DNA of 64,000 bases from a virus: positions 1 through 64,000 of IMG/VR virus record IMGVR_UViG_3300049432_000156; one strand, 5' to 3'. Positions 5,400-44,148 of the stretch are shown piece after piece. Every line of letters begins with the position of its first letter. Position 1 is the first letter of the stretch. The notes under the pieces were generated by a model. That model worked only from the letters and a program-made list of their open reading frames with translations, did no database searches and was not told the DNA's origin. Made by a program: the position numbers and the translations under genes.

Positions 5400-6304
5400 T
5401 GCGCGGTGTGATTCTAGCAGGCGGCACAGGCTCGCGATTGTTCCCCGCCACGGTTGCCACGTCGAAGCAACTTCTCTCAGTGGCAGGCAAGCCCATGCTT
5501 CTCCATCCACTCTGTACTCTCATGGAGGCTGGCATCCGCGAGGTCTGCGTCATCACCACGGGAGACGAGTCCGGAAGATTCTGCCAGCTTCTAGGCAATG
5601 GGACTCGGTGGGGCATGAAGATAGAGTATCGCGAACAAGATGAACCGCGAGGAATCGCCGATGCTTTCCTTATCGCGGCATCCTTCATCGCCAAAGAACC
5701 GATGGCGCTCATCTTGGGAGACAATCTTTTCCTTGGCGCTCGGGAAGCAATCGGTGATTACTCGGCGGAGCCTTGCTCTTTTCACGGCGCAGCCGCGTTC
5801 ATTACGCGCGTTGCCAACCCGGAACGGTATGGAGTCATCAGCTTCGACCGGCACGACCGGATCGCTGGCATCAAAGAGAAACCAGGGAGGCCAAAGAGTC
5901 GGTATGCAATCACCGGGCTTTACCTCTGCGCGCCGTCCGTGGTGGAGATCGCCCGCGGACTCAAGCCATCGAAGCGGGGCGAACTTGAGATCACGGATGT
6001 TCTTTCGGAATTCAACCGCCGAGGCCAACTGCGCGCGGTCAAGCTCCCGGCCGCCGCCGTGTGGATGGATTGTGGAACACCCACCGATCTAATGGAAGCC
6101 ACCAATCTGATTCACGCGATGGAAAAAAGAACCGGAGAAGTCATCGGATCGCCGGAGGTTGCAGCATGGAAACAGAAATGGATAAATGACGCTCAATTTG
6201 CGGAGTTAGTCCGCGCCATGCCACAATGTTTTTACCGACAACAACTGGAGGCACTATGCGAAAGAAAGAAAAACCAGAACCGAGCAAGTTCAAGCAAGCC
6301 TTGA
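5396..6304 (+). CDS. rfbA: glucose-1-phosphate thymidylyltransferase
   Basis: GVILAGGTGSRLFP..SKQLL, QDEPRGIADAF, LGDNLF, EKP..PKS, SKRGELEITD, WMDCGT. Confidence 0.92.
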   Translation: MMRGVILAGGTGSRLFPATVATSKQLLSVAGKPMLLHPLCTLMEAGIREVCVITTGDESGRFCQLLGNGTRWGMKIEYREQDEPRGIADAFLIAASFIAKEPMALILGDNLFLGAREAIGDYSAEPCSFHGAAAFITRVANPERYGVISFDRHDRIAGIKEKPGRPKSRYAITGLYLCAPSVVEIARGLKPSKRGELEITDVLSEFNRRGQLRAVKLPAAAVWMDCGTPTDLMEATNLIHAMEKRTGEVIGSPEVAAWKQKWINDAQFAELVRAMPQCFYRQQLEALCERKKNQNRASSSKP

Positions 6305-6464
6305 CCATCACGCTGGCAGCGGATGGTTGGGTTATGCCGGAATCCCATGCGCTCAACATCATGGATGAACACGTTCGCCGGCTAGAGCAGGAGATTGAAG
6401 TCCTTACCAAAGGACGTAGCGCCGGCCCGTCGAGGATCAATCCACTTGGAAGGCCGATACCATC

Positions 6465-6740
6465 ATGAACAAGCAACAACTCATCGCCACCGTTGCCGAA
6501 GAACAGCGTGAAAACCTGCCGCCAGATTGGGAGCTTCCGGTTCACCTGGACATGACGAGCTTGTTCGTCGTCATCGGCGGGCTGCAACTGGCCTTGCGCC
6601 ATCCGGAGTTCAGAAAGACTCCATCCGCCAAGTTGGTGCGGAAGATCATTGACCTGCTCATCTCAGGAATCCCGGACAACTGCCCGACCAGCAAAGAACT
6701 GGCAAGGCTTGGAGACAACCCGAAATACGACACCGCTTGA
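6465..6740 (+). CDS. hypothetical protein
   Basis: Coupled ORF with LQLALRHP motif. Confidence 0.65.
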   Translation: MNKQQLIATVAEEQRENLPPDWELPVHLDMTSLFVVIGGLQLALRHPEFRKTPSAKLVRKIIDLLISGIPDNCPTSKELARLGDNPKYDTA

Positions 6741-8346: not shown

Positions 8347-8550
8347 ATGAAAGTCAATCGTTCACGTTACACATGCCCGATTTGCAGGGAACCATTGTGC
8401 CTCGGTCCAGCCACGAATGACGTGCCAATCTTCCTCTGGTGCGGTACGGGGAGGTGCAAAAACAAGGCAGCGAACAATGGGGCGCACGGCAAGACGGAGG
8501 ACGAAGCTTTCTCCGCTTTGTTGGAGAACATCGACAGGGAAGAATCGTAA
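8347..8550 (+). CDS. small zinc-finger protein (Lar-like)
   Basis: CPIC...WCGTGRC...GKTEDEA. Confidence 0.55.
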   Translation: MKVNRSRYTCPICREPLCLGPATNDVPIFLWCGTGRCKNKAANNGAHGKTEDEAFSALLENIDREES

Positions 8551-8551
8551 G

Positions 8552-8583
8552 AAAAAAGCCCCGCGCTATGCGCAACGCGGGGC
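8552..8583 (-). terminator. intrinsic terminator for minus-strand transcription
   Basis: Stem GCCCCGCG/CGCGGGGC preceded by A6 on + (U6 on -). Confidence 0.6.
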
Positions 8584-8628
8584 CAACCAGAGGATAACCA
8601 ACGAAGAAAGAATACCGAAAGCTACTGA

Positions 8629-9015
8629 ATGAGCAAGCCGAAAGAAAACTCAGACATCACAGTACATTGCGAAACCTGCGGCACCAACTATCTGATTATG
8701 AAACTCGCGGGTCTCAGGGAAAAGATTCCCGACCTGGACCTGAAGACCAATCACTACAAGCACGGTCTCTGCAATGAGTGCGATGAACATCTGAAAGCCG
8801 GGGGCGTGTTCTTTCAGGATCGAGCCGGGCGATGTGTAAAGGTCGGACTTGAAGCAAGCCTGGAAAAAATATCACCGGGCTTTCGTGGCAAAGTCATCTG
8901 CATACCTTCGAAGGCCCTTGACGAACTCATCGCGGCGTGGATGGAGGCCAACCCGAATCCGCCGCCGTCGCCAGAATCCAATTCAGAGTTCGGAGATCAT
9001 CCGCCAAAGACCTAA
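8629..9015 (+). CDS. Cys-rich hypothetical protein
   Basis: CETC...CNEC pairs; TAA falls in the left core of the attC-like site at 9010. Confidence 0.7.
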   Translation: MSKPKENSDITVHCETCGTNYLIMKLAGLREKIPDLDLKTNHYKHGLCNECDEHLKAGGVFFQDRAGRCVKVGLEASLEKISPGFRGKVICIPSKALDELIAAWMEANPNPPPSPESNSEFGDHPPKT

Positions 9016-9099
9016 GACCGCGCTGGAGAGAACGCCGGGAAAGCGCTTCAGTCGTCGCCATCCGTTTTCTCCCCGGCGTCTCTCAGCTTGGATTTAGGT
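9010..9099 (+). repeat. attC-like site with mutated cores
   Basis: ACCTAAg-accgc-GCTGGAGA-gaacgccggg ... cccggcgtc-TCTCAGC-ttgga-tTTAGGT; AAC and GTT each carry one substitution. Confidence 0.7.
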
Positions 9100-9379
9100 G
9101 GATGAGCAACACGTCGATATGAAAACAGCAATTGTGATAATCGAGATACCTTACGGCAAAGACGATGCCATGAGGCACTGGCGGCAGCTTGCAGAGTTCT
9201 ACGCCGATAAAACAAAGTCCAAGCCAGGAATTGAAAGGCTTGCCGAAAATGTGTGGTTGATACCTCTTGATAGTGAATTGCCTCTGTTCGGCACTCTTGT
9301 ACACGGAGTGCGAGAGCATCACTTGAAATGCCGCACCCTGTTTCTTGATGAGAGTGCGCAATGGGTTTCATCCACCTAA
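9098..9379 (+). CDS. gene-cassette ORF, hypothetical
   Basis: Lies exactly between two attC-like sites; TAA is within ACCTAAC; start may be ATG 9119. Confidence 0.7.
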   Translation: MDEQHVDMKTAIVIIEIPYGKDDAMRHWRQLAEFYADKTKSKPGIERLAENVWLIPLDSELPLFGTLVHGVREHHLKCRTLFLDESAQWVSST

Positions 9380-9481
9380 CCAAGCGCTGGAGCCAACGCC
9401 GGGGAGTCACGCGAGTTGAGCCTTGGATTTTCTCTGGTCCAGCGCCAGCGTCCCGGCGTGGCTCAGCTTGGGTCGTTAGTT
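9374..9481 (+). repeat. attC-like site
   Basis: ACCTAAC-caagc-GCTGGAGC-caacgccggg ... cccggcgtg-GCTCAGC-ttgggtc-GTTAGTT; imperfect palindrome with extrahelical bases. Confidence 0.85.
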
Positions 9482-9960
9482 CTTTGTCTTTCATAGGCTT
9501 GCCTTTCCAATTGGGTTAACAGTTCAGAGATCGTAATATGACACCCGCCGGCTGAATTGACAATGGCCCAGTCTTTGGTGACGAGAACACGCGCAAGCTG
9601 GGCGTCATCATTCCATGCGCCGATCTTGGTCAGCGCATTTGCCACTGCCGCAGCCAGGTTGTCGAAGTCGGGTTTCTGTGTGTGATGGCTTGGAGCGGTT
9701 TCCTTGACCTTGCCGTTCGCCCTGAAGTGCGACTTCGGCCGCTTGAAATTGAACCGCAGTTCAAGGGAGATCGGGCCGTCGAACTTCTCAATTCCAGCTT
9801 CTTTGGCGGCTATCGCGATGGCCGACTTCCAACCTTCCGCCGTCGTCGGCGAGTACGCCCTCACCTGAATCTTATCTCCTTGTTTTAACGCGAACGCCCG
9901 CGGCCTGCCTTGCGCCTTTGGAGTTCCAGATACGAAAAAACTGATCGTTCTATTGGACAT
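9463..9960 (-). CDS. rusA: RusA-family Holliday junction resolvase
   Basis: GTPKAQGRPR...F.FKRPKSH...KPDFDNL...WNDDAQL; start set at ATG 9960. Confidence 0.85.
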   Translation of the reverse strand: MSNRTISFFVSGTPKAQGRPRAFALKQGDKIQVRAYSPTTAEGWKSAIAIAAKEAGIEKFDGPISLELRFNFKRPKSHFRANGKVKETAPSHHTQKPDFDNLAAAVANALTKIGAWNDDAQLARVLVTKDWAIVNSAGGCHITISELLTQLERQAYERQRTNDPS

Positions 9961-10043
9961 GCCGCCACCATCTTCTCCTGACAACATTGTGGGACGATAG
10001 CCAGCGCTGAATTTCCAAGCAATGAAAAAATCACAAAAAATGA

Positions 10044-10071
10044 TTGCATTGTTTTTGGTCCTCTGTATCGT
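10044..10071 (+). promoter_or_regulatory. putative sigma70-type promoter in divergent AT-rich spacer
   Basis: TTGCAT-16bp-TATCGT, 8 nt before ATG 10080. Confidence 0.45.
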
Positions 10072-10079
10072 GGCCGTGC

Positions 10080-10238
10080 ATGAGCGCAACTCAATCTGAA
10101 CGGACATGCCCGGTCAGAATATCCAGAGAACTCCATCAGCGGGCAAAGGCTTACGCCGCAAAACGCGGTTTGAAGATGCAAGCGCTGGCCGAACAAGCCT
10201 TCAAACTCCTGCTCGATGGCGCGAAGAAACCCCTATGA
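10080..10238 (+). CDS. ribbon-helix-helix (Arc/CopG-like) regulator
   Basis: PVRISRELHQRAKAYAAKRGLKMQALAEQA. Confidence 0.7.
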   Translation: MSATQSERTCPVRISRELHQRAKAYAAKRGLKMQALAEQAFKLLLDGAKKPL

Positions 10239-11479
10239 GTGAACCAACAAATCCGTTTGCCGTCGCCGCGAAACCAGCCGGGCCTGAGACGCTTCAGAGC
10301 CTTCTCGCCCAGGACAAATATCGAAAGCGTTTCGAGCAGGTGCTCGCCGACCGTGCGCCACAATTCATCAGCAGCATTCTCTCGCTGGGTGCCACGATGC
10401 CGGACGTTGAACCGCGAAGCATTCTCGCCAGCGCGGCCATCGCGGCATCTTTAGACCTCCCCGTGGATAAAAATCTTGGGTTCGCTTGGATCATTCCCTA
10501 TCGCAAGGGCGACAGGAAGTTCGCATCATTCCAGATGGGGGCGCGCGCCTACGTGCAGCTTGCCCTGCGCACTGCTCAGTACAAACGGATGAACGCGAAA
10601 CCGGTGAACGCCGAGGCGCTGAATGGGTACGACAACATTGGAGAGCCGGTGATTGATTGGAACAAGCTTGACGAAACAAAGGAACCGGTCGGGTATGTCT
10701 TTGCGTTCTCCCTCGTAAACGGTTTCACCAAGACATGCTACTGGTCGAAGTCCAAGGTCGAGGATCATGCCAGGAAATACTCGCAGGCGTATCGCGCAGG
10801 CTATGATTCGCCGTGGAAGACGCATTTTTCGGCTATGGCTTTGAAGACCGTCATCGCCAATGAGCTTCGGCACTGGGGTATTCTATCGGTAGAGATGCAG
10901 ATGGCATTTCGCGAGGACCTCGGAATGCACAAAGACATCGACACTGAAGTTGAATTTCCCGAGCCGGGAGACGAAATCATGCGACCGAAGTTTGATGACA
11001 AAATCGCCGACGCCGCGGACGCGAAGGCAACGGCCGACGAGAAGGCCGAAGCAGCGGCCGGTCTCGCCCCATCTTCACCGCCACCAGAACAACCCAGGCG
11101 CGGGCGAAAGAAAGCGGCAGCACCGGAGCCACCGGTTCAAGCCGCGCCCCAAGCGCCCGCGCCTGCTCCTGCTCCGGTTGCTCAGACGGGGCCAACAACC
11201 GCGACTCAGCCAAGCCCACCGAGCCAGCCAGCAGCCGGAGCCACGCAGCCGTCGTTCTCGGAGCTTTCCTTCCAACCGTACAACCAGTTGCGCGAGTTGA
11301 TGGATCACAGCAAGATCACGGAGCCGGAAATGATTCGCCTGTGCAGACACCGCGGCCTGATGACGGAGCAGCAGCAGGAGCTTCTGCAACTTGCGGACGA
11401 TAAGATCAAAGACCTCTGCGAAAGTTGGCCTGCAGTCGCTGGGCAGGTAAGGATTGATCGGAAGAGTTCGGGGAAATGA
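10235..11479 (+). CDS. recT: RecT-family ssDNA annealing protein
   Basis: AAIAASLDLP..NLGFAWIIPY, FQMG..YVQLALRT, SPWKTHFSAMALKTVI; Pro/Ala-rich linker and C-terminal extension. Confidence 0.9.
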   Translation: MSEPTNPFAVAAKPAGPETLQSLLAQDKYRKRFEQVLADRAPQFISSILSLGATMPDVEPRSILASAAIAASLDLPVDKNLGFAWIIPYRKGDRKFASFQMGARAYVQLALRTAQYKRMNAKPVNAEALNGYDNIGEPVIDWNKLDETKEPVGYVFAFSLVNGFTKTCYWSKSKVEDHARKYSQAYRAGYDSPWKTHFSAMALKTVIANELRHWGILSVEMQMAFREDLGMHKDIDTEVEFPEPGDEIMRPKFDDKIADAADAKATADEKAEAAAGLAPSSPPPEQPRRGRKKAAAPEPPVQAAPQAPAPAPAPVAQTGPTTATQPSPPSQPAAGATQPSFSELSFQPYNQLRELMDHSKITEPEMIRLCRHRGLMTEQQQELLQLADDKIKDLCESWPAVAGQVRIDRKSSGK

Positions 11480-11910
11480 AATTGCCAAAAGCAATTCGTG
11501 GCAACGCTGGTGGCAGCGCTGGGCGGCTGCGTCGCGCGCTCCGACGGCTGGCGAATAGCGCGGCGCTGGCGTGTGCATCACGATCACCGGAGAAGACCCG
11601 GGCGGCCCTGCAAAGCCTCAGCGCCGAGGTGGAGCGCGCAGATCAGGTGATAAATTCCATCAAGCAAGCAGAACGACCCAAGCTCAATGCGTTAGACCTT
11701 TGCCGGTCGATGCTGAATCACTCAAAAGACAGAGAAAATCTCCGAGCGCCCGAAGACGATGAGATTCGCGAACTCTGCGAGCGAATTGGATACGGGGCCG
11801 TCATGGATTCTGCGGCTCGACAATGGCGAAAGAAAGACCCGATTACCGCTTTCGTCACCGGTCCATGTATTGGAACTCTCATCCATTATCTCGCTGACCG
11901 ATCCGAATGA
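11476..11910 (+). CDS. hypothetical protein
   Basis: ATGA-coupled to recT. Confidence 0.6.
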   Translation: MKLPKAIRGNAGGSAGRLRRALRRLANSAALACASRSPEKTRAALQSLSAEVERADQVINSIKQAERPKLNALDLCRSMLNHSKDRENLRAPEDDEIRELCERIGYGAVMDSAARQWRKKDPITAFVTGPCIGTLIHYLADRSE

Positions 11911-11976
11911 GCGCCACTGACACCAGCTTTTCAGAAGTCGCCAAACGCGTTCAACTGCGAGGTGGTCTGTGATTTC

Positions 11977-12006
11977 GCCGAACGGCCAAGCAGCGCATGG
12001 TTCGGG
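11977..12006 (-). repeat. attC-like site A (internally deleted)
   Basis: + strand GCCGAACggccaag fused directly to cagcgcatgGTTCGGG. Confidence 0.6.
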
Positions 12007-12143
12007 AGAAGCCGACCCGCTGGTGTCGGAACTGCGAAGCCTCGCGACGACCGAATACCCGCTCTGCCCGGAAGCGAGACTGCTGCTTGAAATGGCCGTG
12101 GATGCTCAGCTTGGAAAACCCATAGACGTGACTCGGCTGCTCC

Positions 12144-12235
12144 CCAAGCTCAGCGACGGCAAAACCGAGACTCAACCATGCGAGAAAAAGTAAACCCAGA
12201 GCAGAAGCCGAGTTCGCCGGAGCGCTTGGTTAGGC
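12144..12235 (-). repeat. attC-like site B (left core deleted)
   Basis: ccaaGCTCAGCgacggc ... gccgagttcGCCGGAGC-gcttg-GTTAGGC; ATG 12178 in loop. Confidence 0.7.
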
Positions 12236-12470
12236 TGATATACTGCACTACACTGCTCCTCCTTGGCGTAGCGTCCATCAGCCATTCGATTGTGATATGG
12301 CGCTGGCAAAACAGGATCGTCACTTTAGAAACAGAAGTATCACTGCTGCGATCGCAGCTATCGACCCGACAATCAGGATCGCTATATCCACGCAGTGAAG
12401 GCGCTCAATTGATCTCTTCAAATCTCCTTGGCCATCTCGCCCCTATTGACTCTATTTTAAGCATGTGGAA

Positions 12471-12776
12471 TCAGGCTGACGTACCATGAACCGCGATCCT
12501 TCCTCTTTGCGTGATGCGATATTCAGTCGGGCGCGTCGCTGTCGCTTCGGCATGGCCAGACTGAAGAAGACGCTCCAACAAAAAGTCAGCGCGCTATACC
12601 GATACTCCGACCGTCTGTGCTATCGCTTCTGGAAGTACCCAATCCCGCGCCGTGTCCAACGCCTTTATGACATGGCGTGCCTCTACGGACAATTGCTCCC
12701 CTATTACCTCGCGGTATTGCTGGAGGAGTTCATCATACTTCTGACGGAGGGAATCGAAGTCTTCATTTGGGTTCAT
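12471..12776 (-). pseudogene. winged-helix protein interrupted by in-frame TAG at 12594-12596
   Basis: Manual translation through the stop: EAIAQTVGVSV*RADFLLERLLQSGHAE...YRITQRGR. Confidence 0.6.
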
Positions 12777-12811
12777 AATAGGCGAGTGAACGATTGGCGT
12801 CGCGATAGTCA

Positions 12812-12919
12812 GCCTAACGACCAAGCTCAGGAGCGGCGGGAAGGAAAACTATGAACGAGCAAGAGACTCAAGGCACAACCTCAACCGGCTCCCCGCCGTC
12901 GCCCAGCGCAGTGTTCGGC
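12812..12919 (-). repeat. attC-like site C
   Basis: GCCTAAC-gaccaa-GCTCAGG-agcggcggg ... cccgccgtcgcccagc-gcagt-GTTCGGC; AAGGA and ATG 12851 in loop. Confidence 0.8.
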
Positions 12920-13066
12920 GGCGGACGTTGCTGGCGAAACTTTTTGGCAGCATAACCGACCCGCGATACGCGGTACTAGTGCGCGTGAATCCGAGGCGGC
13001 GACTCGATCCGTGATGAGAGACGAAAGGGTTATGCTGCCGTTTGAATCTGTGGACAAGAACGAGCC

Positions 13067-13148
13067 GCCGAACGACCAAGCAAACCTGAAACCTTATGGC
13101 AAATAAACAAAACGCAAAAGCCGGGTTCGCTGGAGCGCCTGGTTCTGC
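13067..13148 (-). repeat. attC-like site D (left arm shortened)
   Basis: GCCGAAC-gaccaa-gc ... gggttc-GCTGGAGC-gcctg-GTTCTGC; ATG 13096 in loop. Confidence 0.75.
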
Positions 13149-13353
13149 GGCGTGCCCCGACTTCTGGTTTCGATACGAGAGGGTGGACGGCGAGGAAGTG
13201 ATAAACACATCGCGCAATCTGCTCTATGAACAGGTGATGGAAATCATGGCTGGGATTGATCGCGTGAAAGCGACGATCACCGCTGGTGACAAATGGCACT
13301 GCCCGAACTGCGACAAGCCGCATAACGACAAAGCTCAGCGACCGGCCAACTGA
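13096..13353 (+). CDS. cassette ORF, hypothetical
   Basis: Starts in site D, stops in site E; HCPNC motif. Confidence 0.55.
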   Translation: MANKQNAKAGFAGAPGSAACPDFWFRYERVDGEEVINTSRNLLYEQVMEIMAGIDRVKATITAGDKWHCPNCDKPHNDKAQRPAN

Positions 13354-13423
13354 TATGAGCCAACCCGCGAGCAACGGCACGACTGAAACGACAATCCCGG
13401 TTGGCTCCAGTGAGTTGTTAGAG
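13320..13423 (-). repeat. attC-like site E
   Basis: GCATAAC-gacaaa-GCTCAGC-gaccgg ... ccggttg-GCTCCAGT-gagtt-GTTAGAG; ATG 13355 in loop. Confidence 0.8.
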
Positions 13424-13609
13424 GCGCTTCGGCGATGGCGCTACTTTGAAAAGAGACACGCAGCAGTGGTGCTTGGTGAAATCGACATCGACGCACAGCA
13501 GGCGAAAGAAGTATCTGACCGTGCGTTGCATCAACTGCGGATTGTGGCGGATAGGGCAATCACGCAAGCCTCTAACGACAAGCTCACCGACCGCCCACCG
13601 CGACAATGA
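13355..13609 (+). CDS. cassette ORF, hypothetical helical protein
   Basis: Starts in site E, stops in site F overlapping the next ATG. Confidence 0.6.
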   Translation: MSQPASNGTTETTIPVGSSELLEALRRWRYFEKRHAAVVLGEIDIDAQQAKEVSDRALHQLRIVADRAITQASNDKLTDRPPRQ

Positions 13610-13672
13610 AAAACACTGACTCCAAGTCCAACCCGAAAGCGAATGGCGGTTCGGTGCAGCGCATGGTTGGGC
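13570..13672 (-). repeat. attC-like site F
   Basis: CTCTAAC-gacaa-GCTCACC-gaccgcc ... ggcggttc-GGTGCAGC-gcatg-GTTGGGC; ATG 13606 in loop. Confidence 0.88.
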
Positions 13673-13821
13673 TGCGACGGTGCTCTTGCGGTCTCCGTCC
13701 AAAACTCACGCGATGGGAGGGCGGCGTAGAAATCGAATGCAGACTTGGCATGGACGAAGGATGCGGAGACTACATTAATGAAGCGACTGAGGCTCAAGCC
13801 CGAGCCGCATGGAACCAGTAA
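13606..13821 (+). CDS. cassette ORF, Lar-like (restriction alleviation) zinc finger
   Basis: LRRCSCG..P....IEC....GC.....EAQARAAWN resembles the Lar family pattern. Confidence 0.6.
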   Translation: MKNTDSKSNPKANGGSVQRMVGLRRCSCGLRPKLTRWEGGVEIECRLGMDEGCGDYINEATEAQARAAWNQ

Positions 13822-13825
13822 GTGA

Positions 13826-13912
13826 GCCCAACGACAAAGCTCAGCGACCGGGACGCTGAGTAAAGTATTAACCCCGCGGCGAATCCCGGTTCGCTGCAGC
13901 GATTGGTTAGGT
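13826..13912 (-). repeat. attC-like site G
   Basis: GCCCAAC-gacaaa-GCTCAGC-gaccggga ... tcccggttc-GCTGCAGC-gattg-GTTAGGT. Confidence 0.9.
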
Positions 13913-13932
13913 AAAAGTAACCCAAAACCACA

Positions 13933-14148
13933 ATGAAAAAAACGACCATAACTCAGGCCCAAGAGGACGCCGTATATGCAATCGGCACCAAATCTCGCGT
14001 CAACCTGCACGAAATCCACCCGCGCGTTGCTCGTGCTTTGATAAAAAAAAGACTGATCGAAAAACAATGGAACTCGAACGATGCAAGCGGAGAAAAGCTG
14101 AAGCTGACGGACAATGGCAGATCGGCGTTCAAACAGCTTTTTACCTAA
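13933..14148 (+). CDS. cassette ORF, small winged-helix-like protein
   Basis: HPRVARALIKKRLIE...LKLTDNGR; TAA within ACCTAAC core; AT-richer than flanks. Confidence 0.65.
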   Translation: MKKTTITQAQEDAVYAIGTKSRVNLHEIHPRVARALIKKRLIEKQWNSNDASGEKLKLTDNGRSAFKQLFT

Positions 14149-14161
14149 CAGTACTTTAGAC
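14143..14161 (-). promoter_or_regulatory. attI-like simple site
   Basis: Minus strand GTCTAAA-gtact-GTTAGGT; same 7-5-7 spacing as attI1 (CCCTAAA-acaaa-GTTRRRY); no palindromic arm beyond it. Confidence 0.6.
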
Positions 14162-14183
14162 GACTCTTGAAAGGTAACGTTAA

Positions 14184-14477
14184 ATGACTCGCAAGCACTC
14201 AGCCAACGCACTGGCGGCAAAACAACGCAATCGGTTGGCCTCACCACCACCTGATTACTTCGACGCGCCGGATTACTCCAAGCCCGTGCGCGAGATCGTT
14301 TACCGCGACCTGCTGAGCGGCGAGACGCACATATTCCTGTTGTTCATCCATCCGCGCCGGGTCGATCAATTTGTTTGCCTCATCGACGGCAAGCCGTGGC
14401 TGGCCCAAGCCGGTTGGAGCCGCGTTTTAGCTGGACTCCGCAAGGCTGTGCCACGCTTCTCACAACGACCTCAATGA
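14184..14477 (+). CDS. hypothetical protein
   Basis: 97 aa, coupled to next gene. Confidence 0.65.
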   Translation: MTRKHSANALAAKQRNRLASPPPDYFDAPDYSKPVREIVYRDLLSGETHIFLLFIHPRRVDQFVCLIDGKPWLAQAGWSRVLAGLRKAVPRFSQRPQ

Positions 14478-14731
14478 ACGACGCTCTGTTCAGACCGTCC
14501 TCGATGCTCCGCCGGTCAAAGTGTCCGGGGAGCTTGGCGCTTGAATCCACGTTGCCGGAGAGCGTGGATGACGAGAGCGACGAATACCGAGCAGAAGGTC
14601 GCCTGCTACACGCGCTCATTGCAGACCCGTCTCTGCCGAGAGATGAACTAAAGCCGAGCCAGATGGATTTAATCGAAACCATCGAGAAGGAGGAACGGAA
14701 TTTTCTCGAATCTAATCTATTCACCGTCTGA
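14474..14731 (+). CDS. N-terminal part of DUF2800/Cas4-like PD-(D/E)XK nuclease
   Basis: RPSSMLRRSKCPGS...AEGRLLH. Confidence 0.7.
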   Translation: MNDALFRPSSMLRRSKCPGSLALESTLPESVDDESDEYRAEGRLLHALIADPSLPRDELKPSQMDLIETIEKEERNFLESNLFTV

Positions 14732-15618
14732 TGAAAGATTACATCGAACTGGTGGAGGAAGCGTTCTCATTCAGTTGGGATGGCAAGGTGTTGTTCACCG
14801 GGCATCCAGACAGTGTGCTTGTGTTCCGCCTTGGTAATCCAGTCATCGTGCGTGAACGGAAGATGGGGTTCAAAGTGGTCCAAGCTGCTGACGCAAACCT
14901 ACAGCTTCGTGCGTATATCGCGATGGTATCCGAAAAATATCAAGCGAGCGATTACTACGGCCAGCTCACCCAGCCGAGAGTTTCATCGAAGTCACACATT
15001 GTTTATTATACGCGAGAGGATGTCGCCAAAGCCCGCCTTGAAATAAAGGCTTTATGGGACGCAAGCCACGCGCCAGATGCGCCGCGCCGGGCATCGCACG
15101 ACGCCTGCAACTTCTGCCGGGCGCAGACCGTGTGCCCCGAATTTCAGTCTTGGCTCGGTGCCATCGAGAAATCAAAGCACCTGCCGGTCGCTCAATGGAC
15201 GGACGGCCAGATGAGTCTGTTTGAGGAACGGCGTGGAATGTTGGAGAAATTCCTCAAGGAGACCCACAAGCAGATCTTCGCGATTAAACAGGCTGACCCG
15301 GAGAGATTGCCGGGGTGGAGTATAAAGCCCGGAGCTAACGTCCGAAGAGTCAACGACCTTGTCGCCGCCTGGTCGGCATTGCAGAGTTTGCTGTCCGACG
15401 GTTTTGGCAACGAAGCCGCGAAGCAATTCAGCAATTGCTGTGACATCTCAATCGGGGCATTGGAAGATTTGATTTACAACATGCTCAAGGATGCGGCAAA
15501 AAAAAAGAGCCAGAAAGAAGTCAAACGACTGGTCAACGATGCCCTGTCCGGGCTAATTGAACTGCGACAGAACAAGCCATCATTGGTCAAAGATGAGCGA
15601 ACAGCACCAAACCGTTAA
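14731..15618 (+). CDS. C-terminal part of DUF2800/Cas4-like PD-(D/E)XK nuclease
   Basis: GHPD..ERKMG..NLQLRAY..QPR..CNFCRAQTVC..LPGW. Confidence 0.75.
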   Translation: MKDYIELVEEAFSFSWDGKVLFTGHPDSVLVFRLGNPVIVRERKMGFKVVQAADANLQLRAYIAMVSEKYQASDYYGQLTQPRVSSKSHIVYYTREDVAKARLEIKALWDASHAPDAPRRASHDACNFCRAQTVCPEFQSWLGAIEKSKHLPVAQWTDGQMSLFEERRGMLEKFLKETHKQIFAIKQADPERLPGWSIKPGANVRRVNDLVAAWSALQSLLSDGFGNEAAKQFSNCCDISIGALEDLIYNMLKDAAKKKSQKEVKRLVNDALSGLIELRQNKPSLVKDERTAPNR

Positions 15619-15775: not shown

Positions 15776-16126
15776 ATGAGCTTGGTTAAAAAGCTAGATG
15801 CCATCCCGCCCTGCCTCGTGCGTTTGATCGCCAGAGACCCACGGCATCCAGGCCGCCGGCTGCCGCTCTTGGCCATTGCCGAACGCGCCGGCTTGTCCTA
15901 TGGAGCCACGAGGCGCCTGTCGCTGAAACGCTCGTGGGGCAATGTCACACCAAGGATCATTGATTCCTTCTGTAGCGCGTGCGGCGTCGACATTCTGCAT
16001 CCGAAAAGCTCCGTTGATTATCTCAAAAGAACTCTGAGGAAACCAAACGGCTACAAACTGCTGGCCAACAAATCCGGTTCTGGATCGGCCGAGTCGGTGC
16101 TAAGATTATTGCAGACACTCCAATGA
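15776..16126 (+). CDS. HTH DNA-binding protein
   Basis: LLAIAERAGLSYGATRRLS...IDSFCSACGVD, XRE-like. Confidence 0.55.
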   Translation: MSLVKKLDAIPPCLVRLIARDPRHPGRRLPLLAIAERAGLSYGATRRLSLKRSWGNVTPRIIDSFCSACGVDILHPKSSVDYLKRTLRKPNGYKLLANKSGSGSAESVLRLLQTLQ

Positions 16127-17103
16127 ATGACGAAAACAAAGCCCTGGAACAGAACCCCGTCCTCAAGCCGACGGTTGCCATATGGGTCGAGGAGTACAAG
16201 GCGCAGAATTTTCCAAGATTCGCGCAGAACACTCGAACCTTAGTGAACACTGAACTTGTCCGGTTTGCGCTATTCCTTGGACGCCGAGCAATCTCCGGGA
16301 ACATCCTGCACGAGTACATGGCCGAACAACGTCGCAGGGTTGCAGGCGAATCGCTGATCAGGGCGATGCGATGGACTGGCGCATTCCTGAAGTGGGCCGA
16401 GGAAATGGGCTACCTGGACAGGCGCTACTCGTCGCTGTCGATCTTCAAATGCAGTGCGGTCCTGGTCATTCACAAACCGCCGCAGCGCTTCACGCCCGAA
16501 CAGTACGAAGCGATGAAGGAAGCGACCAAGGGCACCGGATGGCACTATGCCACGATCATGGCGTATCGCACCGGCGCACGGTTGAGCGATGCGTGTCTGC
16601 TGAAATGGGAGAGCGTAAACCTGGAAGAGCTTTACATTCATTACCTGCCGTGGAAAACCAGGAAGTCGCAGCGGTATGCGACCTGCCCCTTTCAGGCTGG
16701 TGGGGATTTCCACAATGTACTCATTGAGCTAAACGCATCACGGGACAAGCGCCCGCACTGGGACCAGTTCGTCTGCCCGGAACTCGCGATGAGATACGCG
16801 ACGCAATCAGACGTGTTCCAGAGCTATGAGCTGAGTCGTCAGTTCGGAGGCTACTGCAAAAAAATCGGCGCTGCGCACCTGAGCTTCCATAAACTGCGTA
16901 ACACGTTCATGGCGAAATGCGTTGACGGCTCAATCCCGTTCGCACAGGCGCGTCAGATTACGGGGCTTGGTAGCGACAGCGTGTTCATGCGATATGCGAA
17001 ACCGAATCTGGATGTTCTCAGAGTCGCAATCGACAAAATTGATTCGCAAGACTTGCCTAAAGGAACGTCGATTATTCAGTTGCCGCAAAATTCGGCAGCT
17101 TGA
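16123..17103 (+). CDS. tyrosine recombinase
   Basis: TGARLSD (R), PWKT (K), FHKLRNTF (HxxR), MRYA (Y); second His appears as Leu (ITGL). Confidence 0.85.
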   Translation: MNDENKALEQNPVLKPTVAIWVEEYKAQNFPRFAQNTRTLVNTELVRFALFLGRRAISGNILHEYMAEQRRRVAGESLIRAMRWTGAFLKWAEEMGYLDRRYSSLSIFKCSAVLVIHKPPQRFTPEQYEAMKEATKGTGWHYATIMAYRTGARLSDACLLKWESVNLEELYIHYLPWKTRKSQRYATCPFQAGGDFHNVLIELNASRDKRPHWDQFVCPELAMRYATQSDVFQSYELSRQFGGYCKKIGAAHLSFHKLRNTFMAKCVDGSIPFAQARQITGLGSDSVFMRYAKPNLDVLRVAIDKIDSQDLPKGTSIIQLPQNSAA

Positions 17104-21899: not shown

Positions 21900-22201
21900 A
21901 ACCACTCGCAACAACAAAAACCGCCGCCACTGTAATGTGCCGTCCGCAATTCAGGATCGACTGCGTTGGCGAGGAAGGCCCTCATTCTGATATGGAGAAA
22001 TATGGATGGGTGCCAAGTGGGGATGACATGCTTTATCTCACAGTGAAAACCTGTGTGAATACATGGCATTGCATGGTGCCAAGAGCCGCTATGAACGCCG
22101 TGTTCGAGGCGATCAACAAAAACGGTGTCACGATTGAATTTTGCGGTTCAGATAGCCGTCAATCTCCCATGCCGCTAGACCGCCAGCCTCCGCAGCCGTG
22201 A
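21896..22201 (+). CDS. hypothetical protein
   Basis: Last + gene, converges on the giant gene. Confidence 0.5.
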   Translation: MKPLATTKTAATVMCRPQFRIDCVGEEGPHSDMEKYGWVPSGDDMLYLTVKTCVNTWHCMVPRAAMNAVFEAINKNGVTIEFCGSDSRQSPMPLDRQPPQP

Positions 22202-25200
22202 CTGTCTCGGCCTTCTTGACGCGCCCCTGAGCAAGCTACGAGTTCTCAGCCCACGCCGCAGTGACCTTGATCTGAACCCGGAGCGCACGCCGCGCGGAGA
22301 GCCAAGAGAGAGTCGGCTGCGCGAACCGCCGAATCCTCCGATGTCGGAAAAAGCGCCTGAGCTTTCGGATGGCACCGCGCCGAAGCCGCGTCCGCCGCCG
22401 AAGCTCCGGGCTGTAGCGCCGCCTCCACCCGTGCCGTAACGGCTGGCAATCTGGTTGAAGACAGCGTTGGCCTCATTCTGCCGTCCGAGCGCTTCAGGAG
22501 TCATACGTGAGTAAATCATTTCGCGTTCGCCGTCCGTCAGCACACGGGAGAACACGGCGGACTCTGGTGCCCGCGTCCGGATAGCGGAGATGATTGCCTG
22601 CTCAGGGTTCGGATTGCCCGACGCACGACTCTGCTCAACGGCTTTGGCAAAGGCTTCGTCCGCCGTGGACCAATCTCCGACTGCCGCCGCATTCAGAATC
22701 GTGTTGTAGAGCGGAGTCATGGGCGTGACGCGCAGATCATTGCCTGACGAAGGCTGCCTTCTCTTGGCTTCCAAACTCTCCGGCGTATTGGCGCGAAGCT
22801 CATTGGCGGCGTTGCGCATCTTGACCAAACCCTCGCGTGATGGCGCCCGGTTGATGAGCGCCCGCGCCACGGGCGAGTAACGCGCCAGGAAATCCACGGC
22901 TGGCCCGGCATCACGGCTCTGGTAAATCTTAGCCATTGTTTGAAGGAGGTCCGTGACGTAGTTCGCGCCGAAGATCGGATTGCGCAGACCGAGTTTACCT
23001 GGTGTATCCTTGAACCCTTTGAAGATGCTGCCCGCCGCACCCCAGAAGTTCGCCGCAACAGAGAGCAGAATCTTCCAGCGATCATCGTCATTGTCCGCGT
23101 CCAGGAAATCCGGTTGCGATGAGATCGTGTTGAACAACGCGTCATTCGCACGCTGCCCGGGAATCCTCGCAACCAACCCGGCTATGCCCGATGCGATCAG
23201 GAAGCCGAACACAAACGGCAGATAACGCACGTCACTGCCTTTCTGGCCGCGGACCTTGGCGAACAATTCCTGCAACTTGTCCGTGTTCCAAAGAAACCAT
23301 TGGCCGAGCACACCGCCAATCTGCCGTTCTTTGCTGCCCATGAAATACGTCGGCCTGCTCGTCGGCGTGCCCATGTTCGTGTCTTCGGCCATTTTGAACT
23401 GCAACGCATACCGCTGCGCCGGGGTCATAATCGGCGCTGTGCGGTTCCCGTTGGGATGCGTCTTGTTCCACCAATACTTCAGCATGATCAGGTCAACCGG
23501 ATCGTTGTTTTCCAGGAACATGTTGCGAAGCTGGACAGCGGCTTTGCGCATCGTCAGTCCGACGATGATTGGGTCTTTGCCCGTCAATTCGGCAGGTGAC
23601 AGGAGTTCACCCTTGCCATCCGGCCCGATCAAAACACCGGAGAACCGTTTGTAGTTGTCGCCGTATTCCCGATAGAGCCTTGCGAACTCCGGATCGTTCT
23701 CAAGCCGGCTGTCGAATGCGCGCATCGCCCGGACTTCCAAAGACCTTCCAAGGCTTTGCTCCTTGGCGATGGATTTGACATTGATCCAGTTATCGACGGA
23801 GCGCATGAAGCCATGCCGCAGTAAGACTTGTCCGGCGCGCGGGATCATCCCGATGTAACCGAACGCTTCCTTGCTCCCGCTCAGACTTGGGTCGGCGTGA
23901 ATGTCACGGAACGCGGCCATTGCCGCTTTGAAGTTTTCCGCCAGCGTCCATTCCGCATTGGTGCCCATCGCTTCCCGGTAAGAGAACCGGTCGATCATGC
24001 CCATCCTGGCCTGTTGCTCTCGGTCGGCAGCTTCCTGAGCCATGCCGGATACGATCTCCGTTGCCGCTTCTCTCAGGTCGCGATTGTCCAACAGCCGTTT
24101 GACGGCGTTGGTCTTCATTGCACGCAGAGCTTTAGCGCCCGGGCGAAGACTGACAGGTTCGCCTTTCCACTTCAGATACGGCACTTTCAATTCCGCCAGA
24201 GCAGCAGTTTTTATGGCCGTGCGCACCCAATCTTTTACGAGATGGCCTGTCACCCACAACCAGCCGCCTTTGCGGATCTCCGCCGTCTTCAATGCCCACA
24301 TGAACTCGCCTGAAACGCCGTTCGTGATCAAAGTCATCGGTGCCAGGAGCACGTTGCTGACGGCGAAATTCCACCACGGCATGAACATCCGTGACGCGAT
24401 GTCATCACCGAAGAATCCCTCGCCGCGTTTTGCGATGTCGGTGACGTTGTTTAACAACCTGCCAATGCGGGCGATGTCCCGGTTCACCTCCCAGATCGCC
24501 ATCTGATGTTTCTGCACGGACTCGTTTCCGGAGACGATGGCTGCGTTCAGCTTGCGCCGGGCCTGCCAGCCGGTGCCACCGTAAGCGTCCTTCAACGTCT
24601 TGGACAACGCGGTCTTCTCCGCGAGTAACGCAGTGTTCAACGACCGCAGGCTGTCGCGGTACTTGATGACGTAGAATTCTAGGGCATTGGCGCCTTTGCG
24701 GAAGGCATCAACCGGGTCGGTTGTTCCGTACCGGTACAACGTGCCAGGAGCAATCTTTCCGCCGCGCGGCTGGGTGAATTCGTTCTCATGCACGGTGATG
24801 TCCACATTGGCCGCGGTCGCTTTCCTTGCGTTATCATCCGAGACCTTCAGCATGAACTCGTTCACTTCATCAATCAGCTTTCGTCGGACTTCGCCAGCAG
24901 TTGCCGGTGGCAGTGGCGGGTCAGAGCCTGCGATTCGCTGGTTATACCGATCTGCAATGAACTGCGCTAACTCATCCAGGCTGGCCGGCATCCGGCCCTC
25001 TCTGAACAAAATCTCGCGTTCGTTCCGTATCCGTTTGTAATCCTCAGCGAATTTGCCTTGGCCAAGCTGGAAATAAGGGCGCTCGTCTTCAAGGACGTGC
25101 CCGAGCACGACGCGTTTGTACCGGTCCCCGGCGCTGAGGAATTGGTCGATCTGATTATTCTCCCGGGCGCTCTTCCACAACGCCGGCAGTTCACGGCTGC

Positions 25201-28200
25201 TCGGTGGCAGAAATCGCGGTATCGTTCCCGGCCCGCGCGACAATGGCGCCCTGAACATCCTGAGTTCATGCTCCTTGATCATGGCCGGGTCCTCGGCCAG
25301 GGCGGATTCAAACCCGGCGCGCTGCGCCAGGCGGACAAGGTGTTGCTCGAATTCGTACTGCGTCCGGATCGCCGCCATGTCTTCTTTGGTGATGACGTGT
25401 CCGAATGGTGTGTGCTCGCCGACGTTGTATAACGTCTGTCCAGTGTGCTGCCGAGAATCGTGGATGAACGAAGCCACTTCATCGCGCCAACGGTCCAGCG
25501 TCATCCCCGGATGCGACCGCATCGCCTTCAGGTTTGTGCCCCGAATGATTTCATCGAACTTCTTCTGCAACGCATTGTTGGTCTTGAGCGCAAGCGAATA
25601 AGCGTTGCCTGCCCTTATCATCTTTAGATTGAGAGCGCCGGGTATCCTTGAAGCCGTCGTTGCCGAGATCAATCCGTACTTTGATTTGGTAACGAAATTG
25701 AACCACTTGATCGGGTTGAACCAAGACGGATCAGTCAGCCGATCGTTGTCCGCGTGCGATGCCAAGATTTGAGCATCGATGTATTCCGCGAAGTGCATCC
25801 AACCAGCGGCTTTGATTGGATCGGCATCCGGTCGCGCCGCGTATTCAAGCCCGGCATCCTTCAGCGCGTTCAGTTTCAGGAGCAATTCAACCTGCCCACC
25901 AAACCGGTAATCCACTTCAACGTCAGCGCCGGTCAACGGATGCTCGTATGTGACAACGACACCGTCCACCGTGTTCTTGATGTCCTTGATTGCGCCGGTT
26001 GCACGCTGCATTTGCTTTCCGAAAGCCACGAATTCTGGGTTGGCATCATGTTCGTTTAGGAACTGCGCGGCTGCTTCCAGATTCGCCTTCTTTTCAGTCA
26101 ACGTCTCGATGCGCCGGTCGAGCCGCCGCGCAGCGGCACTGAGCGCATCGGATTCGACTTGAGCCTTGGCATACTCCTTGAGAATCGCATTGAAACCGCG
26201 CGGCGTCCTCGAACGAAGATCGTTCAGGTAATCCGCGTTGAACCGCCGCAACGTTCCGTCGGCCGTCATCTGGACTTCGAGCAATGCCTGCCGCCAATCG
26301 CCAATCTGACGAAGACCCCAGAGCGTTGCCTCGATGACATCGCGCCCAGCGTTGATGGCCTTGTTGCCTTCCGGTGTTTGGATTTGGTCAAGATGCGTTG
26401 CCAATTGGCGGACCCAGGCGCGCACCGTGAGCGGTGGCGATAACCCAGGCGAACCAGTTTGAGTCGCGATAAGCTCAAGAACGTTTTCGCCAGGCCGTTC
26501 AGCCGTCAAAGCAGCGCGCCCGACCAGCCGGGTTATTCCACTCAACGCCCGTGCGTGCGCCACGGGTTGACTGAGCAAATCATTGAGTTCAGCGATGTGT
26601 TCGATGCCTTCGCCGATGACTGCGTTGGTGTGCGCTTTCTCTCCGACAGCGATTTGTTCGGTATGGATTTTGTCGATGATTTCTCCAAGCCGATTGGTCC
26701 GTTCCACCTGCGCTTCGTTGGTTTCCGGTGTGGCCGTGATGCGGTCGGTAATCGCCTGGGCATGATCAACGGCAGCCGCCTCCACTTTACTCAGGATTTT
26801 CAGCTTCTCCGCCTGGTACAGGTTCCATTCAACAAAGGCATTGTGTGCGTGCTCAGCTTTCTTTTCCGGCGTGATGTTCGGGTCAGCCATGACCTGGGCG
26901 AACGTTGGGCCGGTCTCGCGGTGCGTCCCAATCCTGCCGCCGAACATGTCTTCAAGCTCACCGCGGATGCCGGCGGGCAAAGCTGTGTAGCGCGGAATCA
27001 CCGACGACGGCACCAACCCCTTGTTGATGACCGACGCCATTGCGCGGAAGTATTCCGGTGTCCGGGTTTCCTCCAACGGTTTGACGTACTCCTCGACGGC
27101 CTGGCGGGATTCCAGGGCGGCTTGGGTGCCCCTGCTGCGGCTTATGCTGGGAGGTTCCGCGCGGGCCTGCCCGGCAAGGATGTCCCCGATTGGGCCAGCA
27201 GCGCGATCTGCCGGTCCAGTTCTTCCAAGGCCGGCACGTCCTTGTTCCGGAATGCCGACAACTCCCGGCGCATTGACTCCAAGTGGACCTTCACCAGGCC
27301 GTGCAGCTTCACCGGGTCGTTCGGGGCCAACGGCTGAAGAAGATTGAAAACTCTCGGCACGATTCCTTGTATTGTAATTTTGGAGTCGGTCATTGATTTC
27401 ATTGAATGCCTCCCAGTTTGTAGTAAAAATCTTGTCCAATGTCCCCTCAAAAATCTCGACGGGTATGTCCGCCGAGCGGAGTCTGGCATAGTTGTTCGCG
27501 AGTTCAGCGGTAAAATCGGCTCCTTCTGTCCTGGCGGCAACGTGGGTTATTTCGTGAATGAAGATGTGCAGAGCTTCCGATGCCGCCGCTGCCGGGCTGC
27601 TCCTACCCGCGTTGGAGAACAATCCGAGGTTGAACCATATCGCCCGCATCGGCTTTACCATGTTCAAGCCGCGATAATTCTTGTCGAAAGAGATTCCGCC
27701 GAACCATCCGGTGATCGAAGCGTCGGTGAGTTGTTCGTACTCGCCTCCAACTTTCTTGCCCCATTCGCGCATGAAGTTCAGAAGGACATTGCCGGTCTCG
27801 GTGATCAGTGTCCCGGCGCGCGGAATGTCGTCAAACTCCACGGCGACGTTGTTGTGAAGATTCGGCACAGACGGGTCCATGTCGCTCACGTCGATTTCCG
27901 TTTTCTTCAGGTCAATCTCGCGCTTTGCCTCGAAAGTCTTTCTGACGTACTCCTGCTTGCTCTCGGTGATCGCGGTTCCGTCCCTGTAGTGAATGACGAC
28001 ATCCGGGCCTCGAAAATCCACGGACTCAATTTCCTTCGGCTTTCTGATCGGAGGCGGCGGTTCGGACTTCTTTCGGAAATAACGCCGCTCCATGTCGGCC
28101 ATCTCTTCCGGCGTCCAATCTTTCATCGGATCAACCTTCTCCAATTGCCGAATGCTGGTGAACGCTTCCTTGGCCTGAAGCAGTTCCTGCTCAACCGCCA

Positions 28201-43645: not shown

Positions 43646-44148
43646 GGCGCAGGTGACGGCCCGGATGGCGCTGGTGGACTCGGAGCTTTGGCCGGCGGGA
43701 TACGACCCACGCGCGGCTTCGAGAATGAACTCGGCACCTCTAAGGGCTGAACTCTCTGCTGCCCAGCTTGCTGCTGCGCCTGGTTCGGCGATGAAATCAC
43801 GTTCGGCCCGGGCACCACTGTGCTACCGACGGCGGCTGCGCCCGCAGCACGAATGGCTTGGAGTTGTTGAAACGGGATTGGCCCCAGACTCTCCCGATCC
43901 CGCACTGGCGATGATCCCAAAGAGGACTGAGAGGTTTTTTTTTGTGCCAGCCATGAATTATACTCGGCCTCCGTCAACGGTATCACCCCGCCGGTGTGCG
44001 TCTTCACCGCGCGATCAAGCTCAGCGATTAAATACCCATCAGACGTCGCCAGAATTCCGTAGGTGCCGCCGATGTCCTCGAACGGCGCCTTCGACCCGTT
44101 CGGAAGATAAAGCGCGGATTGAACCAGTTCCTTCAAATACCATTTCAT
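43642..44148 (-). CDS. hypothetical virion-region protein
   Basis: ATG 44148 overlaps the stop of the upstream nuclease. Confidence 0.65.
   Translation of the reverse strand: MKWYLKELVQSALYLPNGSKAPFEDIGGTYGILATSDGYLIAELDRAVKTHTGGVIPLTEAEYNSWLAQKKTSQSSLGSSPVRDRESLGPIPFQQLQAIRAAGAAAVGSTVVPGPNVISSPNQAQQQAGQQRVQPLEVPSSFSKPRVGRIPPAKAPSPPAPSGPSPAP

Follow-up and report, generated by a model that had tools for sequence, protein, structure and literature searches.

A probable integron-type cassette array, mostly reversed and without an integrase, in the early operon of an uncultured soil phage

Positions 11,977–14,161 of IMG/VR virus record IMGVR_UViG_3300049432_000156, of which the first 64,000 nucleotides (the window) were analysed, very probably hold a genuine integron-type cassette array that lacks an integrase, lies between recT and a DUF2800 gene in the early operon of an uncultured soil phage, runs mostly in reverse and is serviced by an integron integrase (IntI). 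Integrons are usually seen as devices of bacteria, with genes that have no promoter, lie upstream of attC recombination sites and are read from the integrase end; applied to this array, the word denotes a cassette array with an attI-like junction and no integrase. In the mechanism that we propose, circular cassettes would be inserted by IntI—the host's or, in some phages, the phage's own—at an attI-like junction at the promoter-distal end, and older sites would decay where they stand. The phage early transcript would express the cassette genes, many of which appear, in relatives, to have anti-restriction functions.

Sites were detected with a covariance model, R1, trained on 60 copies of the repeat (alignment A1) taken exclusively from bacterial genome contigs; nhmmer recovered fewer phage sites than the covariance model. 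Run on both strands, R1 matches all seven sites, A to G, on the plus strand with scores of 17–65 bits, and the minus strand of the array gives no match of comparable score. A reading of this DNA made earlier without database searches (the sequence-only reading) had described seven imperfect palindromes at these places, and R1 finds every one. A full copy, such as G, consists in order of RYYYAAC, a short spacer, AAGCTCAGCGACCGG, a variable loop, CCGG-T-TCGCTG-C-AGC, a 5-nt spacer, and GTTRRRY. Site G (13826–13912, GCCCAAC ... GTTAGGT, 64.9 bits) is the best preserved and stands nearest the junction; before it come F (13570–13672, CTCTAAC ... GTTGGGC, 51.6 bits), E (13320–13423, GCATAAC ... GTTAGAG, 27.2 bits), and C (12812–12919, GCCTAAC ... 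GTTCGGC, 26.5 bits), the loop of which holds an ATGA stop/start overlap at 12851. The remaining three are partly deleted, as the earlier reading had it. Site D (13055/13067–13148, GCCGAAC ... GTTCTGC, 24.6 bits) has lost its 5′ arm and holds in its loop the ATG of the gene c4; B (12135–12235, 29.2 bits) is truncated at the 5′ end, with the 3′ arm and GTTAGGC intact; and A (11977–12006) is a 30-nt mini-site, GCCGAAC ... GTTCGGG, with the inner arms deleted and a marginal score (17.1 bits, E 0.003). Both cores, RYYYAAC and GTTRRRY, are thus present in C–G and in A, the first is missing from B, and a half-site at the junction, H, has the first only. Elsewhere in the window, repeat arms of this quality occur just twice, in minus-strand copies at 9374–9481 and 9010–9099. 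Marginal plus-strand matches to R1 at 43697–43789, 11668–11697, and 6274–6332 (12–14 bits, E 0.03–0.15) may be relic sites or chance.

In the consensus fold of R1, a 3-bp core helix and an internal loop precede a 16-bp stem; two single bases bulge out of this stem, both from its 3′ arm. These bases, a T and a C in the plus strand, are the actual asymmetry of the sites, in place of the 8-bp and 7-bp L boxes invoked before. Across 29 sites of the phage clade, 94% of cells are paired, compared with 73% in shuffled sequence and 30%–46% with the partner slid, and compensatory changes occur at 13 of 19 stem pairs, although the alignment behind these figures was fitted to the model and is biased towards pairing. 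When the sites are folded, G does clearly better than shuffled sequence (−19.1 kcal/mol, z −2.9); F reaches a z of −0.9, and E, C, D, and B are not better than their shuffles.

Complementary cores across a cassette are an established sign of a circular intermediate integrated at the core. The six core pairs that the sequence-only reading had listed as bounding cassettes are all present, and these cassette-end cores are reverse-complementary at 23 of 24 variable positions; the permutation mean is 14.2, and the true pairing alone, of 720, attains 23. The two cores within a single hairpin agree at merely 1–3 of 4 positions. Taking the viral loci and the window together, adjacent sites enclose 94 intervals, and in 81 of these the end cores match at 6 or 7 of the 7 positions. 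Homologous exchange offers no explanation for this agreement between the two ends of a cassette.

In an exact-pattern scan, the repeat was found in more than 120 bacterial contigs; among the matches listed, about 73 belong to Verrucomicrobiota, 17 to Planctomycetota, and 30 to other groups by record title, and the attC family is common in the chromosomal integrons of the two named phyla. Five loci with a TIGR02249 integrase (L101, L152, L157, L153, and L161; three of the five exceed the curated cut-off) were used to calibrate the strands, and in all five the sites lie upstream of intI and on its coding strand. Since the same site in intI-linked loci scores around 100 bits on one strand and around 22 on the other, R1 is strand-specific. 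In L101, the array end GCCTAAC is joined to non-repeat DNA just before intI, and the cassette open reading frames (ORFs) lie on the opposite strand, starting a few bases past the core; because this is the classical divergent layout, the strand that bears the motif as written is the bottom strand. Both bulged bases are on the arm adjoining GTTRRRY of the motif-bearing strand, a position at which, in studies by Bouvier and by MacDonald, the recombinogenic strand reportedly has its extrahelical bases. The earlier placement of the top strand on minus is therefore backed, on grounds other than the L boxes, by the position of the bulges, the position and strand of intI/attI in five of five loci, and the strand of bacterial cassette genes. 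Judged by these three marks, the recombinogenic bottom strand of A–G is the plus strand of the window, which is the sense strand of the phage operon. Bacterial copies of the repeat are mostly exactly 93 nt long, with loops conserved too, and occur on contigs labelled Verrucomicrobiota, Planctomycetota, Nitrospirota, Acidobacteriota, Cyanobacteria, and others; such a spread over many phyla reflects either very wide sharing or, in large part, mis-binning.

Crossover on the bottom strand falls within RYYYAA/C; hence, the mobile unit reads C, attC, GTTRRRY, gene, RYYYAA, with attC lying 5′ of its own gene. The genes c1 and c4–c7 are encoded on this bottom strand, and the start codon of a gene lies in the loop of its attC, usually together with the stop of the gene before it. 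ORF c1 (11969–12193, plus strand, 74 aa) extends across site A and cassette 1 as far as the loop of B, where it stops; it has no family match, and Pfam and PHROGs searches with the cassette ORFs of the window returned nothing usable. ORF c4 (13096–13353, plus strand, 85 aa, with a CPNC motif) starts in the loop of D and ends in that of E, its tail HNDKAQRPAN being encoded by the core and arm of E. The ATG of c5 (13355–13609, plus strand, 84 aa) lies 1 nt past the c4 stop in the loop of E, and its stop overlaps the c6 ATG (ATGA) in the loop of F. From there, c6 (13606–13821, plus strand, 71 aa) encodes a zinc-ribbon protein, two homologues of which (P0003 and P0004; 52% and 46% identity over residues 13–71) have the same attC-encoded leader and tail. 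None of the three has a Pfam match, including to the Lar family PF14354; a cassette protein of the relative L011 scores 19.5 bits with that family, below its 28.6 cut-off, and a Lar-like identity for c6 is a lead only. ORF c7 (13933–14148, plus strand, 71 aa) starts 20 nt past G and has its TAA stop within the ACCTAAC core; its stored Atlas model superposes on MarR-type winged helices with a template modelling (TM) score of 0.85, and a predicted fold of this type is likewise only a lead.

Through the core and 5′ arm of the next site, c2b (a doubtful ORF), c3b, c4, and c5 share a reading frame, giving the tails PNDQAQ..., PNDQAN..., HNDKAQRP..., and SNDKLTDRP..., with ND(K/Q)AQRP in common. That the arms are conserved as a peptide was considered and is ruled out: the frame in which the 3′ arm is read varies from site to site, so the arms are conserved as DNA. 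Cassette 3 (12920–13066, plus strand, 147 nt, cores matching at 7/7 positions) contains a hairpin of its own at 12944–13041 (−24.3 kcal/mol, z −4.0), with a perfect 12-bp stem that includes GCATAAC/GTTATGC. The GTTATGC of this hairpin pairs exactly with the core GCATAAC of site E (13320), from which the GTTCTGC of D is one base off; the hairpin may be what remains of a different attC type or of a rearrangement.

The strand that codes was examined by classing each cassette according to the strand with a frame open across it, leaving out the unclear class; below about 250 nt this test is indecisive, as both strands are usually open. Bacterial cassettes between regex-defined sites are open on the top strand only in 60 cases, on the bottom strand only in none, and on both in 13, and with nhmmer-defined sites the counts are 40, 1, and 12. 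For viral cassettes between R1-defined sites they are 2, 13, and 39, taking only cassettes with at least 6/7 core positions matched and omitting L029, which resembles an ordinary bacterial integron. One of the two viral top-only cases (L166, 5866–6415) has a bottom-strand ORF with a closely similar counterpart in L028, as compared by eye and unscored. Pfam matches on bottom-strand ORFs of viral cassettes include Mom (7.5e-61), N6_N4_Mtase (2.5e-52) and a second N6_N4 methylase (4e-20), C5 DNA methylase (6e-39), DUF7694 (7e-21), HTH_31 (2e-8), and PAPS_reduct (7e-6); homology thus settles the bottom strand as the coding strand of the larger viral cassettes. In 68% of viral and 24% of bacterial sites, the loop contains an ATG or GTG from which an ORF of 50 codons or more runs on through the 3′ arm, and in L021, L024, and L026, too, loop start codons have a purine-rich stretch upstream.

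Within the window, a codon model trained on 23 long ORFs separates true frames (0.17 ± 0.09 per codon) from false ones (−0.20 ± 0.14). On this scale, the plus-strand ORFs c1, c4, c5, c6, and c7 score 0.164, 0.180, 0.095, 0.07, and 0.173 per codon, respectively, and long minus-strand ORFs that cross sites score negatively. The claim that the array's ORFs lie on plus, opposite to canonical cassette genes, stands for c1 and c4–c7, on codon scores, coupled stops and starts, and the c6 homologues; it does not stand for cassette 2, which has a pseudogene on the minus strand. The canonical layout, with top-strand genes read from a promoter at the attI end, does not apply to c1 and c4–c7, whose bottom-strand frames point towards the junction.

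Cassette 2 (12236–12811, 576 nt, GTTAGGC ... GCCTAAC, cores matching at 7/7 positions) is of host type and canonical polarity. Its top-strand gene (12474–12776, minus strand, 101 codons) has an in-frame TAG at codon 61 and is a pseudogene, with full-length tblastn identities of 82% to P0007 and 61% to P0008. The plus-strand ORFs c2a (12178–12489) and c2b (12486–12854) run antisense to this gene and are doubtful. By its sequence, this ordinary host-type cassette lies antisense to the phage operon and is decaying. P0010 is a plus-strand (bottom-strand) ORF like c2a and c2b on another contig, where it too is probably antisense to a P0007-like gene. Polarity is also canonical at a second locus, 8629–9481, in which the plus-strand genes 8629–9015 and 9119–9379 are each followed by a site with its bottom strand on minus. 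These sites are J (9010–9099, minus strand, 44 bits with R1, z −2.8), both cores of which are mutated (ACCTAAa and cTTAGGT), and I (9374–9481, minus strand, 64.3 bits, z −3.5), within which the convergent rusA (9463–10107, minus strand) terminates. The gene of the J–I cassette (9119–9379, plus strand) is on the top strand of the locus and has a codon score of 0.057, and the outer cores of J and I agree at 5 of 7 positions; this arrangement fits the insertion of one cassette into a resident lone attC.

Half-site H (14143–14175, plus strand) consists of a core only, ACCTAAC (14143–14149), joined between 14149 and 14150 to the attI-like flank AGTACTTTAGAC. The end core noted at 14143 does pair with GTTAGGT at 13906, as had been claimed, but it is not a site in its own right, being a half-site fused to unrelated flank. 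A core-like TTAGAC box follows in that flank after a spacer of 5–6 nt, and a similar form is seen in related loci and at the intI-adjacent junction of the viral contig G012. The junctions compared are GTCTAAC joined to AGAGGATTAGAC in L162, CTCGAAC to AGTGATTAGAC in L164, ...AAC to CATTGATTAAC in L165 and L166, and GGCTAAC to AGTGATTAAC in G012; in all of them, and in the window, AAC is preceded by four variable bases that agree with the neighbouring cassette and is followed, 4–6 nt on, by a core-like TTAGAC or TTAAC box. G012 (IMGVR_UViG_3300017707_001413; L004/L161; contig 28.6–37 kb) has 12 sites on one strand and bottom-strand cassette genes for a C5 methylase, Mom, and an N6/N4 methylase. 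The start codon of a true IntI on the same strand (TIGR02249 274.5 bits, cut-off 265; PF00589 and PF13495) comes 29 nt after the junction, and a Dam methylase gene follows that IntI. Because of this arrangement, IntI is physically linked to reversed cassettes and to such a junction in at least one viral contig.

The array of the window, with seven sites in 2.2 kb and no IntI, is a cluster of attC sites lacking integron-integrases (CALIN). The enzyme is usually supplied by the host, we infer, because the record is without IntI, its recombinase is not IntI-like, and two array-bearing records that have direct terminal repeats and are 100% complete by CheckV carry no tyrosine recombinase (PF00589). 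It is improbable that a phage-encoded recombinase, such as the tyrosine recombinase at 16123–17103 (plus strand; PF00589, 5e-11), services the sites in place of an integron integrase, as part of a self-contained integron-like system. This gene does lie about 2 kb past the junction on the same strand, which is the topological place of intI in the calibrating loci; however, it has no TIGR02249 match and no similarity to true IntI, and in the related phage records searched it has no convincing relative, the single faint match (13.8 bits, in G007) lying about 60 kb from the array. The two records with terminal repeats get by without any PF00589 gene, and the attC family is tied to true IntI both in bacteria and in G012. 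The recombinase is not of the IntI type and is probably unrelated to the array.

Related loci were retrieved with an alignment of DUF2800, a single-protein query having given none. The five loci so found (L162–L166) have 41%–47% DUF2800 protein identity to the window and share recT, rusA, or the small gene at 14184 where the locus was read that far. In all five, R1 sites lie on the gene strand directly upstream of DUF2800, and none of their cassettes is held in common with the window; the proposal of a shufflable accessory-gene platform is thus supported by the differing content of the recT-to-DUF2800 interval in related phages. L165 and L166 have flanks that are 99.4%–99.8% identical and share two cassettes at 100%. 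L166 has in addition a 550-nt cassette between the cassettes shared with L165, and a second unit (a site plus 135 nt) that is placed precisely between GGCTAA and the C of the junction GGCTAAC/CATTGATTAAC. At 6670–6690, L165 (compared with L166 at 5745–5760 and 6410–6425) reads AGCTAAAAC where a clean joint would be AGCTAAC, a surplus of 2 nt at the crossover. In the window, site scores drop with distance from the junction, from 65 bits in G and 52 in F to 25–29 in the next sites and 17 in A, a gradient that fits entry at the junction and decay farther off.

Exchange of modules by RecT-mediated homologous recombination, with the repeats as boundary sequences comparable to other phage linkers and attC-like in looks only, has marginally less in its favour than a phage-encoded recombinase and is likewise improbable. 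The array lies directly downstream of recT, and its conserved arms of 20–25 nt could support annealing; left unexplained are the core complementarity across cassettes, the stem covariation, the exact insertion at AA/C, and the occurrence of the family beside IntI. RecT could nevertheless add exchanges between arms. Least of all is the array likely to be a passive fragment of a host integron, acquired by illegitimate recombination or mis-assembly and with chance frames on plus: cassette 2 is of host type, both strands are often open in small GC-rich cassettes, and assembly contigs break at the sites, but six related phages have arrays at the same position, each with an attI-like junction, and strong Pfam domains on bottom-strand ORFs, and the window itself has coupled stops and starts, coding-like codon scores, and assembly contigs of one soil metagenome run that bridge 8800–12822 and 13103–15000 at even depth.

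Several observations weigh against a reversed, IntI-serviced array. The bulged base beside the core is G in well-studied class 1 and Vibrio sites, and here it is C. Polarity is not uniformly reversed, cassette 2 and the 9.0–9.5 kb locus being canonical; the codon scores of c2a and c3a are non-coding, and a sequence search with c7 returns c7 alone and no homologue. With G alone folding clearly better than its shuffles, and with truncations in A, B, and D, the array may by now be fixed for the most part. No TIGR02249 match occurs anywhere in the 77-kb record (77,365 bases, of an estimated 73% completeness), and the proposal of a host IntI is based on the taxonomic spread of the attC family. For this phage itself there is no documented recombination event: the nearest relatives are those with 41%–47% DUF2800 identity, and in the sole public run with the stretch, a soil metagenome that is probably its source, contigs show no joints, just breaks and loose ends at the repeated sites, and are uninformative on excision and expression. 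No RNA run with the stretch is listed.

Integrons and CALINs have been described in 21 phages, temperate and virulent, with cargo that includes orphan DNA methyltransferases and with attC sites that recombine with attI1 through IntI1 (Qi, Rajabal, Ghaly, Tetu, and Gillings 2023; PMC9892861). Like the window, those phage CALINs are attC clusters without an integrase; their orientation, however, is called typical of bacterial arrays, and that paper mentions no reversed polarity, start codons in attC, or attI-like junction. It covers isolated phages, and not the attC family of the window or viral contigs associated with the Planctomycetes–Verrucomicrobia–Chlamydiae (PVC) group. In the integron papers searched, among which subscription journals were thinly covered, we found neither reversed cassettes in phages nor start codons in attC loops described. 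The array of the window is a variant of the phage CALIN in which gene polarity is mostly opposite to that of bacterial cassettes.

The bacterial integrons L101, L152, L157, and L153 share with the window the attC family, the core hallmark, and the arrangement of bulges, but in them IntI adjoins the array, attC follows each gene on the top strand, and no start codon occurs in the loops, which are conserved. Compared with the bacterial 93-nt family, the window has its genes on the bottom strand and loops that are long, variable, and coding. G012 is closer, with the same site family, reversed cassette genes, and a junction of the form AAC/AGTGATTAAC; it differs from the window in having its own IntI 29 nt past the junction and co-directional with the cassette genes. 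Outside integrons, the promoter early stem-loop (PeSL) cassettes of T4-type phages, a report of Arbiol, Comeau, and Krisch from 2010, are said to consist of repeated stem-loops that bound small early genes, with modular shuffling as the proposed function. They probably depend on homologous recombination and, unlike the array of the window, reportedly have no complementary cores and no link to a site-specific recombinase.

Toxin-antitoxin cassettes of Vibrio are often inverted. Such cassettes are isolated, carry their own promoter, and sit in canonical arrays, whereas in the window reversal is the rule of the array and expression would come from the surrounding operon. In the chromosomal integrons of Vibrio, they are known exceptions to promoter-less cassettes driven by the cassette promoter (Pc) (Richard et al. 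2024; PMC13108822). The same work reports that the bottom strand recombines approximately 1000 times better than the top strand, that this preference sets the orientation of cassettes for expression from Pc, and that a single-stranded bottom strand raises excision (PMC13108822).

A wider reading, which taken as a whole we consider about as probable as its failure, brings four statements together. Phages of Verrucomicrobiota and Planctomycetota would keep their own pool of mirror-image integron cassettes; the attC hairpin 5′ of each gene would be at once a recombination site and a module for translation start and coupling; exchange would be carried out by an IntI that comes from the host or, in cases such as G012, is encoded by the phage itself; and, the sense strand being the one that recombines, hairpins could be driven to form by transcription or replication of the early operon itself. 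If true, such phages would have a device for the fast swapping of anti-defence genes that is separate from bacterial integrons.

Phages may be regular clients of integron integrases, beyond accidental carriage, and anti-restriction genes, methylases and Mom among them, could be exchanged through these arrays. A separate pool of phage cassettes is indicated, and annotation pipelines that assume a gene upstream of attC will mis-annotate cassettes of this kind. The dead host-type cassette within the array suggests traffic between the host and phage pools. The array is also a natural test case for the interplay of strand choice, transcription, and attC folding.

Among the backbone genes, recT (10106–11479, plus strand; PF03837, 1.2e-31) stands at the upstream end of the array-bearing operon. 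The downstream backbone gene, DUF2800/PD-(D/E)XK nuclease (14375–15618, plus strand; PF10926 and PF12705), is split over two ORFs (14375–14731 and 14731–15618), compared with a single ORF of around 375 aa in L162, L163, and L166, and the order of its 66-aa N-terminal module and CPGS-motif segment differs between the window and its relatives. As a clue to the host, DUF2800 relatives are too weak, with distant matches in 9 of 301 genomes sampled from the phylum of Limisphaerales G001 (Verrucomicrobiota by title). A sigma-70 promoter scan did no better than chance, and an Rfam scan of 8900–14300 gave just two chance-level matches to unrelated families. On the minus strand, positions 22175–33184 encode 3669 aa in one ORF, a very large size for a phage of 77 kb. 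Between the zinc-ribbon gene 8348–8549 and the gene 8629–9015, a strong GC-rich hairpin of 12 pairs with a T-run on the minus strand (8557–8584) is likely to be a terminator.

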